A DNA stretch of 64,000 nt from Thermodesulfobacteriota bacterium (lineage in GTDB: Bacteria; Desulfobacterota_D; UBA1144; Nemesobacterales; UBA2774), in NCBI GenBank assembly GCA_041753155.1, contig JBGSVA010000004.1, positions 2,883 to 66,882 on the forward strand. The letters run 5' to 3'. The notes beneath the pieces are model-generated. The model saw only the letters and a list, made by a program, of their open reading frames with translations. It was not told the origin of the DNA and searched no databases. A program made the translations under genes and the position numbers. This document shows positions 7,634-22,400 of this stretch, one piece after another (within the stretch, counting starts at the first letter, position 1; each line of letters begins with the position of its first letter).

Positions 7634-8513
7634 TTTGCGGTCCCGTCAGTACGTCCTGAGCGTGGAGCTTCTGCTCGTCGGCCAGTTCTTTCAGCACTGA
7701 GTATTGTAATTTGTTGAGTCCGTCGAACGCGACTCCGCTTATCTCTATCGTATGCGTCTCCGTCACGTCCTCGCCGGTGAGGGGTACGAATTTCTTGTTC
7801 CCGTAGAGCCTGACCGTGTAGAGCATGCAAGTGAGCCTGGACGTTTTCCTCGAATTCGAGTTTATAAGCACCCACGGCGACTTCTCGGACGCCGTATGGG
7901 AGAACATCTGTTCCTTGTACTTCGTGAAAGTCTCCCATTTCTTCCGAGCATTGTAATCGTTTTCCGAGAATTTCCAAAATTTAAGAGGGTCGGTCAGGCG
8001 CTCCTGGAAACGGTAGAGCTGGTGCTCGGGATCCACGGACAGGTAAAACTTCACAAGCTTGAGGCCCCCGTCTATGAGCTCGTGCTCCCAGTCAAGCACC
8101 TTGCCTATGAAATACTCGTACTGTTTCTGCGTACAATAGCCCATTGTCGGCTCTATGAGCGCGCGGTTATACCAAGAGCGGTCGAAGAACACCACCTCGC
8201 CCGGTTCCGGCAGGTGCTGCTCGTACCTGTGGAACCAGTATTTGGACTCTTTTGGCGTCGGCACATCCAGGTCCACTATACGGTAGTACTTCGGCATGAG
8301 GTTCTGTGTAAACCTGAGTATGGTAGAACCCTTGCCCGCGGCGTCGCGGCCGTCAAAGCAAATGCACCACCTCTCCACGTTCTTGGCTATGCTCTGCTGT
8401 ATCAGGAGCAGCTCGAGCTGGAGACGCCTCTTCTCGATATAATAGTCCTTGAGGCTGATCCCCTCATACGGGGATTCGATCATTTCTACTCTGTCACCCA
8501 TAATCTTTTTCAT
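7626..8513 (-). CDS. ppk2: Polyphosphate kinase 2
   Basis: Walker A DGRDAAGKG, FDRSWYNRA, WKFS motif. Confidence 0.92.
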   Translation of the reverse strand: MKKIMGDRVEMIESPYEGISLKDYYIEKRRLQLELLLIQQSIAKNVERWCICFDGRDAAGKGSTILRFTQNLMPKYYRIVDLDVPTPKESKYWFHRYEQHLPEPGEVVFFDRSWYNRALIEPTMGYCTQKQYEYFIGKVLDWEHELIDGGLKLVKFYLSVDPEHQLYRFQERLTDPLKFWKFSENDYNARKKWETFTKYKEQMFSHTASEKSPWVLINSNSRKTSRLTCMLYTVRLYGNKKFVPLTGEDVTETHTIEISGVAFDGLNKLQYSVLKELADEQKLHAQDVLTGPQNG

Positions 8514-19292: not shown

Positions 19293-19524
19293 CGTTTGAT
19301 TTTCATTGACTTCGTCGAATAATTCAAGCCCGTTACTTATAATTTACCGAGCGCATTCTCGATCCTTTTTCTCACCTCTTTTGCTATTTCGTCCATCTCG
19401 GGGTTGCCTTCGAGCTTCAATGCTGACTCCGGATTCATGGCGGTATTTAAAAAAAACATCAATTATGATGCACAGGCGTATATGCAGAATGCATAGATAA
19501 CGCTATTCAATACTAAACTGAATG

Positions 19525-19539
19525 GCAAGACAGGTGCCA
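19525..19539 (-). promoter_or_regulatory. sigma54 (-24/-12) promoter candidate for the RND operon
   Basis: Minus strand TGGCAC-CTGTC-TTGC, about 230 nt upstream of the TolC-family gene. Confidence 0.6.
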
Positions 19540-19696
19540 TCCATCTATATCGTATATTAACAGGAAGTTATAATAAATTTACGGGCACCCGCGAGTGTAA
19601 GATTATAGGACAAACGACATATAGCTGTCCTAACCACTTAAGCGAGGGATATTCAAAGCCCGTAATGAATTGAGGTGTGACAAGGGGTAAGGAATG

Positions 19697-19741
19697 TGGT
19701 CGGGGTGAGAGGGATCGAACCTCCGACCTCGGCGTCCCAAG
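19697..19741 (-). repeat. att site: displaced 45-bp 3' fragment of tRNA-Pro
   Basis: Identical to 21900..21944; begins at the first base of the anticodon loop (CTTGGGA) and runs to CCA. Confidence 0.95.
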
Positions 19742-19788
19742 TGAAAAGTAATGCTTGTGTGGATTTGGGACATTTTGCATGACTTTAC

Positions 19789-21477
19789 CTATTGTTCAAC
19801 ATCTTGAATCATCAAAACGTGATCTGCCGAAATGGCTATGTGTTCGGCAACTTCTTGCGCGTTTCGCGAATTATTACCCCTTGCTGCTATTCCAATCACA
19901 TTATTATGGTTGTCGAATACAGGACCGCCGCTGTTTCCCTCAATAATTTGTTCAGTTATATAGAATCGATTTATAGTCGATTTTACATTTGTTGCATAGA
20001 TATGTCCCTTTTTAATCGCAATTGTATCACCCGGCGTAAATTTAGGCCAACCAACTAAGGTGATCACCTCATCAGTGTTTGGTGCTACAAATGGTTTTCT
20101 AAGCTTTAAAGGTTTATGAGCGCTATGGTCCGCAAAAAAACTTTCGGGATCTTGTAAATCAAGTATTGCAATATCAAATGGATCACCCCTCCTTATCCTG
20201 ACCATCAATGGATATGGTTTACTCGGTTCTTTAGGATGAATCAACCAAAAGTCGTCACAATCATCTCTTATATCAGGATTAGGGTCTTTATCCAGAACGT
20301 GATCGCAGGTCACAAACCCGCCAACATCTTCAAGATAAAACGCTGTACCCATACGCATTCCTCCACCGAAGTCACGTGAGTTTTGGATAACAAATACATT
20401 CTGGTTTATGAGATCTAAAAAGCTATCTGTGGGCACGGGAAGTTTCTTTATAGACGGTTCCCTAAGATCATTATATTTTTTTGCCAAAGTAATATACGTC
20501 GAAAAACCTATTCCACGGATGGATTTAATAAATTCTAGCCTGCCACGCACAATTTTCTCAATATCAGGCGCTGTTTTAAAATCCGGTATGTAATGTGATC
20601 GGTTATTTTCAAAATGTTTCTTAGTGGCTATTTCTAACTCCTCATTTTTCCATGAATTCAACATGGCACGGGTTGTCCGAATAAATCTACGATTTACATT
20701 ACGCTTTTTGTTTGTAACTAGTCCGGTTACTTCTTGTCTACTCGAACGGGTCTGTAATCTAGTCTTACTCTCGTTAATTTTAAATCCATTCTTTTCTATT
20801 ATATGCTGTAATTCACGTCCTACTACGAGTTCCTTTCCTTCAGTACCATGAATTTTGATGTATGCGATAGCACGCGGCAATTGAGGGATATTCGTTGAAA
20901 AAGTAATATCATCCGCATATCTGGTGTAGCGACAACGAAATTTCTTGGCGAGCTTACGCAAATCACTATCCATCTTACTACACAGCATGTTAGAAACTAT
21001 TGGCGATGTAGGTGCGCCTTGAGGTAATGCATTATTATTACAGCATATTTGTGCAATTACTGTGGCTAATTTTTCAGGTAGGTTGTAGGGCTGGGCCATG
21101 AACAATCCACGAACACGGCCAAAATTAATAGTGCCGAAAAAATCAACCAAATCGATATTCAAGACATAGCGCCGAGATATATGCTGATCCGCATTTGTAA
21201 TAATGCTTTTGGATAATACAAATCCGTGTGCTGGGTTCTGTGGAACATATATATCTGCAAGTTTTTTAGCCAAATGGCGTTGGATGGTTTTTAAATGCGT
21301 TGCAGGGGATGATATTATCCTAGTTCCGCCTGAGCGTTTGGGGATTTCGAAATTCATGTATCTTCTTTCTGCTGGAACTCGGTAGATATGATAAATAAGG
21401 TGCTTTTGATATTGTATTCCTAAAAAAGATGCTAATTCACGCGGAGTTTTTATATCAGTTAATTTTTTTGTCATCAT
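19789..21477 (-). CDS. Retron reverse transcriptase fused to C-terminal trypsin-like serine protease (type XI-like retron)
   Basis: RT motifs IPKRSGGTRII, region X NADQH (NAxxH), IDLVDFFGTI, LPQGAPTSP, YTRYADDITFS, region Y QEVTGL. Protease triad VTCDHV / DIAIL / GNSGGPV. Confidence 0.92.
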   Translation of the reverse strand: MMTKKLTDIKTPRELASFLGIQYQKHLIYHIYRVPAERRYMNFEIPKRSGGTRIISSPATHLKTIQRHLAKKLADIYVPQNPAHGFVLSKSIITNADQHISRRYVLNIDLVDFFGTINFGRVRGLFMAQPYNLPEKLATVIAQICCNNNALPQGAPTSPIVSNMLCSKMDSDLRKLAKKFRCRYTRYADDITFSTNIPQLPRAIAYIKIHGTEGKELVVGRELQHIIEKNGFKINESKTRLQTRSSRQEVTGLVTNKKRNVNRRFIRTTRAMLNSWKNEELEIATKKHFENNRSHYIPDFKTAPDIEKIVRGRLEFIKSIRGIGFSTYITLAKKYNDLREPSIKKLPVPTDSFLDLINQNVFVIQNSRDFGGGMRMGTAFYLEDVGGFVTCDHVLDKDPNPDIRDDCDDFWLIHPKEPSKPYPLMVRIRRGDPFDIAILDLQDPESFFADHSAHKPLKLRKPFVAPNTDEVITLVGWPKFTPGDTIAIKKGHIYATNVKSTINRFYITEQIIEGNSGGPVFDNHNNVIGIAARGNNSRNAQEVAEHIAISADHVLMIQDVEQ

Positions 21478-21482
21478 TAAAG

Positions 21483-21635
21483 TGCCAGACAGGAAAAATT
21501 CTTACCTATCACGAAAACAACAATGTGACCTAGATAAGCGATCAAAGTTGAGAGGCCACTCATCGCGTAAAGTTAACTTTCTCATCGTGCGAAGCAGGAT
21601 CAACCTCGCTAGAGCAATTTTGATCCTGTCTGGCA
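21483..21635 (-). ncRNA. Putative retron msr-msd non-coding RNA
   Basis: Perfect 12-bp inverted repeat TGCCAGACAGGA (21483..21494) / TCCTGTCTGGCA (21624..21635) enclosing hairpins at 21595..21628 and 21501..21538, directly upstream of the retron RT. Confidence 0.8.
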
Positions 21636-21643
21636 TACCATTT

Positions 21644-21671
21644 TTCAAATCTACTATCGATTATATTTGAA
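21644..21671 (-). promoter_or_regulatory. Candidate -10 box for the retron transcript, inside an inverted repeat
   Basis: TATAAT on the minus strand (21660..21665) flanked by TTCAAAT/ATTTGAA; no convincing -35. Confidence 0.4.
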
Positions 21672-21899
21672 GAACCCAAATACTCCGGTCATACATATTT
21701 TCTCCCTTTCATTGCTGAACATCTACAAACATAATTGATCTAATTAGGTTCAATTTTGTTTAATATTTTACTTGAAGACATCAAAAAGAAAAAGTTGTTA
21801 TCGGTTAAGCGATGTAGTTGAAAATAGGCTTTTTCAAGAGGAAAGTGTTACGCATAACGACAGATTAAAACTATAAGAAGAGCTAAAATTCAATGATTC

Positions 21900-21976
21900 T
21901 GGTCGGGGTGAGAGGGATCGAACCTCCGACCTCGGCGTCCCAAGCGCCGCGCGCTACCAGACTGCGCTACACCCCG
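21900..21976 (-). tRNA. tRNA-Pro(TGG)
   Basis: 77-nt cloverleaf CGGGGTGTAGCGCAGTCTGGTAGCGCGCGGCG-CTTGGGA-CGCCGAGGTCGGAGGTTCGATCCCTCTCACCCCGACCA with encoded CCA. Confidence 0.97.
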
Positions 21977-21990
21977 ACAGAGGAAAAATG

Positions 21991-22018
21991 ATTATACCCA
22001 TGCCGGTGAAAACAACAA
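21991..22018 (-). promoter_or_regulatory. sigma70-type promoter of tRNA-Pro
   Basis: Minus strand TTGTTG-N16-TATAAT. Confidence 0.55.
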
Positions 22019-22097
22019 GCCGCAAAACGGACGCCATCATAAGGCCCTGAAGGCTATTCTTATAGGCGGAGTAAGAGTCCCTCCGTCAGGACACCCG

Positions 22098-22400
22098 CTA
22101 CCCCAGATACTTGTCGTAAACGTCCTTCGCCCAGAATATCTCCGTCCCCGATGAGAGAAGGGCCGTCTCCATTATTGCCTCGCTTATCTCCTGCTTGCTG
22201 ATGCCGAGCGCGAGCGCCTTCTTTATCCTGGACTCCGTGCAGTGAGGGCACCTCCCGTGCACAGCCACCGACACCGCTATCAGCGCCTTGGTCTTCTTGT
22301 CGAGCACGGTCTCCCCTTCGACCGCGTTATAGAAGCTCCACCAGCCTTCGGCCATCTTGGGGGCGTTCTTCTCGAACCATATCTTGTTGTCGTCAGCCAT
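22098..22400 (-). CDS. Carboxymuconolactone decarboxylase / AhpD family protein
   Basis: LDKKTKALIAVSVA...CPHC...ALALGISKQEISEA; GGAGG RBS. Confidence 0.85.
   Translation of the reverse strand: MADDNKIWFEKNAPKMAEGWWSFYNAVEGETVLDKKTKALIAVSVAVHGRCPHCTESRIKKALALGISKQEISEAIMETALLSSGTEIFWAKDVYDKYLG

Follow-up and report, generated by a model that had tools for sequence, protein, structure and literature searches.

The DNA analysed here, referred to as the window, is a stretch of 64,000 nucleotides from a Thermodesulfobacteriota bacterium (assembly GCA_041753155.1, contig JBGSVA010000004.1, positions 2,883 to 66,882). At positions 19697–21976 of the window, a tRNA-Pro(TGG) gene adjoins a small islet, which carries a single gene, for a type XI retron, and no integrase. 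The tRNA gene is intact and lies on the minus strand at 21900–21976 (ARAGORN; 65.5 bits against the Rfam tRNA model), and the two programs agree that it is the only tRNA gene between 17000 and 25000. Its 3′ 45 nt (21900–21944), which we call the proximal attachment (att) copy, are repeated exactly and in direct orientation at 19697–19741 (minus strand), the distal att copy. The start-to-start spacing is 2203 bp, and the islet measures 2248 nt from repeat to repeat. The bases flanking the repeat mismatch on both sides, so that identity is confined to the 45 nt, which in the cmscan alignment begin with the opening base of the 7-nt anticodon loop and finish at the CCA end. An earlier model-made reading of the same DNA, the initial annotation, had described this duplication, and it was correct in every particular. 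The 3.34-Mb genome contains exactly two occurrences of the 45-mer when up to 3 mismatches are permitted, and no occurrence of a reversed control.

The islet interior (19742–21899, 2158 nt) has a GC content of 37.7%, compared with 52.1% for the genome. Starting from the distal att copy, a spacer of 47 nt with no similarity to integrases (19742–19788) leads to the stop codon of the only long open reading frame (ORF) of the islet, which occupies 19789–21477 on the minus strand. Upstream of this gene are a predicted msr-msd non-coding RNA (ncRNA) gene (21483–21635, minus strand) and an AT-rich non-coding stretch of 264 nt that adjoins the tRNA gene (21636–21899; GC fraction 0.32–0.36, no ORF with a family match). 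The initial annotation, which had listed an AT-rich interior holding only the retron and about 260 bp of non-coding DNA, is borne out by these figures. The 264-nt stretch presumably comprises the retron promoter region and the remainder of the att arm of the element. A scan of it for promoter and terminator consensus sequences gave nothing useful on the minus strand, such a scan being uninformative for this phylum, and a search of the islet region against Rfam returned only the tRNA above threshold. Arm-type repeats had been proposed to be common to 21680–21899 and 19742–19788. Here the proposal did not hold up: the best matches between the two ends of the islet are 17/22 and 16/21 nt, which is unconvincing and no better than chance.

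The retron gene encodes a protein of 562 amino acids, in which a reverse transcriptase (RT) is fused to a trypsin-like protease. Pfam identifies RVT_1 at residues 45–253 (E 1.7e-23) and Trypsin_2 at residues 377–530 (E 1.8e-11), and the PADLOC model RT-Protease_XI is matched over its whole length by residues 5–548 (E 3.5e-171). In an alignment with 29 homologues, the RT residues N95 and H99 (NAxxH), Y187, D189 and D190 (YADD) and V250-T251-G252 (VTG) are invariant, as is the protease triad H393, D435 and S516; A96 and A188 are kept in at least 90% of the aligned homologues. The motif names NAxxH and VTG are those used in a 2026 survey (PMC13712802). Judged by its sequence, the islet protein is a canonical type XI retron RT-protease.

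Directly upstream of the RT gene there is a perfect 12-nt inverted repeat, whose arms, a1 (21624–21635) and a2 (21483–21494), are separated by 129 nt. The a2 arm stops 6 nt before the RT start codon, and the two arms pair in both the minimum free energy and the centroid folds predicted for this RNA. The arrangement is predicted to be the a1/a2 layout of a retron msr-msd gene. We defined this layout as a perfect inverted repeat with arms spaced 90–170 nt apart, lying between 300 nt upstream of the RT gene and 30 nt into it, and reached by none of 100 shuffles. On this definition, a similar upstream repeat of 11–18 nt is present at 13 of 32 other full-length RT-protease genes (loci L050, L056, L063, L073, L081, L122, L133, L163, L179, L195, L215, L259 and L269) and in none of 29 downstream regions. 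The candidate ncRNA (21483–21635) matches no Rfam family. Type XI was described as lacking a recognisable ncRNA by Mestre et al. 2020 (PMC7736814), and the 2026 survey places it among the types without a validated msr/msd (PMC13712802); the clear a1/a2 pair directly upstream of the RT gene sets the islet apart from these descriptions. By analogy with known retrons, the RT would synthesise multicopy single-stranded DNA (msDNA) from the upstream RNA, and the RT-msDNA complex would keep the fused protease quiet. Interference by a phage would free the protease, and the infected cell would be killed or arrested. The islet retron is expected to be a one-gene abortive-infection defence.

Comparison with related genomes shows that the islet is an insertion. 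The 40 nearest genomes, which are species representatives, were searched with the tRNA gene and its right flank, and the sites were then compared; the flanks of the relatives are approximately 85–91% identical to those of the genome from which the window comes (G000, here called the host genome). In G008 the alignment of the left flank runs to base 7740, and base 7741 is the first of the tRNA gene; G001 has the same arrangement. Aligned base by base, the 45-nt copy in the host genome follows the left flank precisely where G008 and G001 have the whole tRNA gene. Because these empty sites are precise to the base, the 2203 bp are an insertion. The retron protein is found (E ≤ 1e-20) in one of the 101 genomes of the order, the host genome, and the precise foreign insertion proposed by the initial annotation is thus confirmed. 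Other cargo at the same tRNA, which had been suggested as something to look for alongside empty sites, is present in three relatives. The insert in G009 measures 3.8 kb, carries three glycosylation-type genes (glycosyltransferases) and is delimited by a 36-nt copy; that in G007 is 7.1 kb long, its 37-nt copy showing 2 mismatches; and that in G003 is about 3.4 kb long, with a copy of 21 nt. All three inserts are free of integrases and of PADLOC matches. The tRNA gene of G004 and that of G006 have other genes as neighbours, with no left flank within 12 kb, and the contig of G002 stops 940 nt from the tRNA gene.

The locus therefore has several of the features by which tRNA islands are recognised, namely insertion behind a tRNA gene at its 3′ side, restoration of that gene by a directly repeated 3′ part, an empty site in relatives (G008 and G001) and a foreign base composition. 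It has no integrase inside, there being no match to the tyrosine integrase family PF00589 within the islet.

The host genome is a metagenome-type assembly of 109 contigs, and the repeat might in principle have been created by the assembler or have arisen by chance. We consider this very improbable. An exact 45-nt repeat is impossible by chance in 3.3 Mb, the reversed control gave no match, and the empty sites in G008 and G001 place the limits of the islet at exactly the same bases. Some part of the window is contained in 20 sequencing runs, and three hot-spring metagenomes of one study hold 83–91% of the sampled words. Four runs, X1–X4, were compared with the host genome over positions 19300–22300 in the form of k=31 Logan contigs, which are the product of another assembler. 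The contigs of X1–X3 match the islet with 0 differences and reproduce every junction path: they join the left flank to the repeat, the repeat to the islet and, through the tRNA gene, the islet to the right flank; a single contig of X3 (record 22) covers the islet, the tRNA gene and the right flank. X1–X3 may represent the source sample of the window itself, and do not count as an independent sample. No single Logan contig crosses the whole distal repeat, which can be held in favour of an artefact; the 45-nt repeat exceeds the k=31 word size, and the contigs therefore cannot phase it. Loose contig ends at the borders of the repeat look like the tRNA contexts of other organisms. No joint was reported in the contigs of X1–X4, and k=31 contigs cannot separate a circle, an empty site and the integrated form.

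An element that inserts into a tRNA gene must carry the part of the tRNA downstream of the crossover if the gene is to be restored, and the start of the identity block at the anticodon loop fits this. It also fits recombination of the integrase type, as the initial annotation had pointed out. We infer that a tyrosine-integrase-type crossover near the anticodon loop joined the tRNA-Pro(TGG) gene to a circular element on which the final 45 nt of the tRNA would also have been present. The functional tRNA would now be completed by the copy from the element, and the chromosome's own 3′ part would have been displaced to the far end of the islet. A scheme that classifies crossovers in tRNA genes by sublocation was reportedly put forward by Williams in 2002. 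The integrase part of the element would then have been deleted, or would have excised alone after a tandem integration. We think it probable that the islet is the residue of a small integrase-bearing island, similar to a cis-mobilizable element (CIME), or else a passenger that such an island abandoned. The version that we prefer is accretion, in which a helper would integrate beside the unit, the composite would transfer, and the helper would later excise alone. The CIME accretion model, as presented in two papers (PMC6323972, PMC3146451), would explain clean ends without an integrase stump. The islet would now be immobile in the host genome unless a helper with a matching integrase arrived.

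Integrases were surveyed in 33 genomes of the family. The host genome has eight PF00589 matches, none of them in or beside the islet: two proteins of about 300 amino acids (a Xer-like size), two upstream of tRNA-Arg(TCT) on contig C96, two on contig C27, and two short fragments with in-frame stops. In the sister genome G005 there is a tyrosine integrase of 355 amino acids (L019:166-1233; PF00589 E 2e-39), whose gene reads towards tRNA-Pro(TGG) and stops 39 nt short of its 3′ end. In G006 an integrase with 61% identity to the G005 enzyme (L295:17087-18184) belongs to a cargo island of 14.5 kb at tRNA-Met, where integrase gene and tRNA likewise converge; a 36-nt copy with 1 mismatch delimits this island. 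The two genes thus end 6–39 nt from the 3′ ends of different tRNAs (Pro-TGG and Met), each reading towards the tRNA, and this looks like an integrase family that switches tRNA targets within one genus. The initial annotation had envisaged that relatives might carry a larger island with an integrase at this site; G005 comes close, with an integrase at the same tRNA. The suggestion that the insertion might still be reversible fared less well, the host genome having no close relative of the G005 integrase; the best are the two C96 integrases, at 36–38% identity. An integrase lying 10 kb from the tRNA-Pro of G013 was set aside, no repeat of at least 11 nt having been found there.

The islet is one of many such units in its genome. 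The 47 genes identified by ARAGORN (46 tRNAs and the transfer-messenger RNA) were compared with the host genome using blastn-short. Partial 3′-end copies in direct orientation on the same contig were found for 10 of the 46 tRNA genes (Pro-TGG, Gly-CCC, Arg-CCG, Leu-TAA, His, Ser-TGA, Pro-CGG, Arg-TCT, Met and Thr-CGT). The nine loci other than tRNA-Pro(TGG) are at C5:76749-80370, C6:12510-17684, C17:57134-58492, C31:44503-45257, C41:39519-79798, C62:55015-56104, C96:13674-31685, C101:40853-54596 and C105:38879-40681. The copies delimit 16 units of 0.6–19 kb, of which 12 are smaller than 5 kb, mostly with low GC. The units nearest to the tRNA are small (0.6–4.8 kb), with one exception of 18.7 kb. 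In arrays, the copy nearest to the tRNA is perfect and the distal copies are decayed. Across the genus, the unit adjacent to the tRNA varies by species, while older units are common to species at 79–97% identity. The cargo includes a methyltransferase-plus-specificity pair, a NotI-like restriction enzyme with a D12 methylase, a Schlafen/AlbA_2 protein, a pentameric ion channel, TetR with a hydrolase, a glycosyltransferase, an HD-domain protein and others. Defence-type genes, comprising the retron, two restriction-modification sets and the Schlafen/AlbA_2 protein, are present in four of the ten tRNA-proximal units.

A PF00589 match is missing from all 16 att-bounded units. Two of them retain the C-terminal end of an integrase: the first tRNA-Met unit opens with about 140 nt coding for the last 38–44 integrase residues (E 1.7e-9, compared with the G006 enzyme), and 33 residues of an integrase close the tRNA-Leu unit (E 7.7e-9). 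The stump regions are C101:54377-54519, C101:52424-52509 and C17:57171-57269. Beyond the tRNA-derived repeat, the first two tRNA-Met units share their initial 86 nt at 97.7% identity, and in the first unit these nucleotides form part of the 3′ end of the integrase gene. Loss of an integrase by deletion has therefore occurred in this genome. No sequence common to the retron islet and the other 15 units was found.

The same comparison bears on the idea that the retron itself made the insertion. The 3′ end of a tRNA serves as the primer for some retroelements, and the cargo of the islet encodes an RT while its repeat includes a tRNA 3′ end; an RT primed at this position might have generated the repeat together with the insertion. 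This architecture is also that of 15 RT-less units of the host genome, and it recurs in units at the same tRNA in sister genomes, so that an origin driven by the retron is excluded in practice.

Relatives of the retron protein were sought outside the order as well as within it. In G009 there is an RT that is only 39% identical and is located elsewhere in the genome. Protein relatives with 59–90% identity (P0001–P0009) exist, and the nearest homologues in named genomes are approximately 35–45% identical. The four nearest protein relatives (P0001–P0004, 71–90% identity) are each encoded on a contig of 1953–2247 nt, close to the 2248 nt of the islet; flanking repeats that broke those assemblies would fit this, and short contigs are common in the collection concerned. 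A search of genome contigs with the single protein for close RT-protease relatives gave 23 pattern matches, none of which was confirmed. Profile scans of genome, metagenome and viral contigs recovered distant retrons only, with best-segment identities of at most 50% in genome contigs and 58% in metagenome contigs (both for the RT part alone) and at most 47% in viral contigs; full-length matches had 31–43% identity. The exact 45-mer had no match in viral contigs, and the DNA of the islet had no match in phage records and three weak matches in plasmids, confined to the RT part.

Among 160 other retron loci surveyed, two have flanking repeats derived from a tRNA. On a contig from a metagenome-assembled genome (MAG) of Proteobacteria (L118:4704-10351), a retron island of 5.5 kb lies at tRNA-Ala with a 45-nt repeat; it has a retron RT, a second large gene and, beside the tRNA, a weak integrase-like ORF (PF00589 E 4.4e-4, below the family cut-off). 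On an Enterobacteriaceae MAG contig (L086:4396-8707), a 4.2-kb retron island at tRNA-Asn has a 21-nt repeat and no recognised integrase. L118 resembles the islet in its position at a tRNA 3′ end, its 45-nt repeat and a retron as the main cargo, and differs from it in having the integrase-like ORF and the second large gene; it illustrates how an intact parent element could look.

Loss or departure of the integrase is most likely because of three observations: the integrase element at the same tRNA in G005, the stumps in two sibling units, and L118. The initial annotation had left two options, a cassette mobilised in trans or a larger island reduced to its selected gene. The evidence from the host genome and its sister (remnants in two of 16 units, the G005 integrase) leans towards reduction or abandonment. 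A number of results weigh against such an origin. The islet is integrase-less, as the initial annotation stated, and a tblastn search of it with four integrases of the genus gave nothing at E ≤ 1. The 264-nt stretch has no DNA similarity to the end of the G005 integrase gene. With no trace of an integrase in the islet, a deletion would have to have ended within a few bases of the att copy. The G005 integrase is an unproven candidate for the cognate enzyme of the 45-nt att: no second att copy was found in G005, whose contig reaches only 165 nt beyond the 5′ end of the integrase gene. About seven tRNA sites of the host genome are located at contig ends, so that integrase-bearing islands may be under-assembled. 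Finally, all eight tRNA-proximal units with perfect repeats are without an integrase, which would also fit cassettes that never carried one.

This last point leads to a different view of the islet, as an active non-autonomous cassette: a 2.2-kb single-gene defence unit, cycled as a circle by an integrase supplied in trans, or in cis by a helper that departs afterwards. In effect, this would be an integron-like economy with tRNA genes as landing sites. It would account for the perfect repeats and the lack of any integrase remnant in the islet, for the absence of integrases from all 16 units, for the variation of the small proximal units between species, and for the defence-type genes in four of the ten proximal units. 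The short contigs of P0001–P0004 would fit assemblies broken by such repeats as well, although short contigs are normal in that collection. On the other hand, no circle, empty-site variant or joint was seen in the Logan contigs, which cannot show them, and no integrase of the host genome is closely similar to the tRNA-Pro type. The 47 nt between the distal att copy and the gene leave little room for an att arm, and no arm-type repeats are common to the two ends of the islet or to islets of different tRNAs. Moreover, the integrase remnants in two units show decay demonstrably at work, and tRNA-derived flanking repeats were found at only two of the 160 other retron loci. We regard an active cassette as a possibility to be taken seriously but a doubtful one.

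The run X4, from another study, is relevant to both of these origins and to a further one. Its islet differs from that of the host genome at 7 of 1335 nt, and its left flank at 6 of 173 nt (Fisher p 0.0018). This hints at recent lateral movement and a unit younger than its surroundings, a comparison in which the flank is intergenic and the sample small; it counts against a residue and in favour of a cassette. The right flank is among the parts of X4 without cover, depths are 3–7, and no contig joins the islet to a tRNA. We note that the retron gene in X4, otherwise 99.5% identical, has a 4-nt gap at 20617 that would shift the frame; the depth there is 3.5, and the gap is possibly an error.

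The islet could also have reached this lineage without an integrase. In that case the unit would have formed in another strain and entered the host genome by homologous recombination, either through a replacement anchored in the conserved flanks after DNA uptake or through a Campbell-type insertion of a circle via homology of at least 45 nt. The organism sampled in X4 has a nearly identical islet, which speaks for this route. The tRNA gene is identical at 77 of 77 nt in 7 sister genomes, and with flanks as similar as those given above, anchors for recombination exist. The 86 nt shared by the first two tRNA-Met units likewise amount to a duplicated homology longer than the att core. Against this, identity at the islet stops exactly at the limits of the tRNA 3′ part, as expected for an att carried by an element and not for an exchange of flanks. 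In addition, 45 nt is near the lower limit for a RecA-dependent crossover, and an integrase-mediated origin would still be required elsewhere. We therefore consider arrival by homologous recombination unlikely.

A residue or abandoned passenger of an integrase-bearing island thus remains the origin that we favour for the islet itself. For the genus as a whole, a broader proposal may be made, though we hold it to be rather speculative. Small single-function modules bounded by tRNA 3′ ends, many of them anti-phage, may be real units of exchange: tyrosine integrases that retarget quickly, such as the pair with 61% identity at tRNA-Pro and tRNA-Met, would insert them at 10 or more tRNA genes and then leave, and the cassettes would accumulate and turn over in the manner of integrons.

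The islet can be compared with several known systems. CIMEs are described in ICEberg 2.0 as elements that lack integration and transfer genes and keep intact attL and attR (PMC6323972). The islet has this structure, with att copies identical at 45/45 nt and the retron as its single ORF, and with no integrase, excisionase or transfer gene. It also resembles CIMEs in lying at a site that an integrase-bearing element of a related genome appears to use, and in the tandem arrays at other tRNAs of its genome. It is unlike them in belonging to an uncultured lineage without a known conjugative helper, where accretion is a proposal. To our knowledge, the described examples of CIMEs are all far larger than a 2.2-kb, one-gene islet.

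Dehalococcoides has tandem site-specific islands at ssrA with direct repeats of the 3′ end of the RNA gene (PMC3146451), and in Prochlorococcus tycheposons build tRNA islands (bioRxiv 10.1101/2020.12.28.424599). The units described here are similar in their serial insertion at one RNA gene, partial gene copies at the junctions, units without an integration module, scattered integrase fragments, and low-GC, strain-specific cargo including defence genes. The Dehalococcoides islands involve a serine recombinase and a 20-bp repeat, whereas the candidate enzyme here is the tyrosine integrase of a sister genome; tycheposons have integrase and replication modules, whereas the only family-matched ORF of the islet is the retron. 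The retron itself agrees with type XI as given in PMC7736814 and in the PADLOC model RT-Protease_XI: one ORF, an RT of the retron clade and a trypsin-like protease with an intact H-D-S triad. Integron cassettes are comparable by analogy only; the repeats of the islet are 3′ parts of a tRNA and not hairpins of the attC type. The islet is a very compact addition to known kinds, being a CIME-like islet with a canonical type XI retron.

The genes that neighbour the islet are unremarkable, with, on one side, an OEP/HlyD efflux pair and, on the other, genes for a CMD-family protein, MsrA and a tricorn-like protease. Several further sequences derived from tRNA genes were seen in the host genome. At 360–399 the window has a reversed 40-nt copy of the 5′ half of tRNA-Arg(TCT), 100% identical to the gene on C96. 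A contig break may separate this copy from the tRNA-Arg element array, whose far end it would then mark. A 48-nt copy of tRNA-Thr(CGT) lies shortly beyond the limits of the window, at C4:1834-1881. At C75:10569-10851, tRNA-Arg(ACG) is accompanied by a 38-nt copy of its internal part (positions 26–63), about 170 nt past the higher-coordinate end of the gene, unlike the 3′-end pattern of the other sites. In addition, a repeat of about 130 nt (75–89% identity) occurs at the att-distal ends of three tRNA-Ser units on C41 and three times in the tRNA-Arg 3′ unit (C96:26860-31638).

The islet is an unusually clean natural case, in which a complete defence system occupies about 2 kb between two intact att sites and the empty site is preserved in sister genomes. 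It thereby delimits the minimal functional unit of a canonical type XI retron, giving its limits, its upstream region and a candidate ncRNA. The candidate is of interest for a type whose ncRNA has been reported as unrecognised or unvalidated (PMC7736814, PMC13712802). In this uncultured hot-spring lineage, a fifth of the tRNA genes (10 of 46) are associated with integrase-less units, a density relevant to the storage and exchange of defence genes in settings with few plasmids and prophages. If the islet is an active cassette, such units would be a tRNA-based analogue of integrons; if it is a remnant, it would be a textbook case of the decay of an island down to its selected gene.

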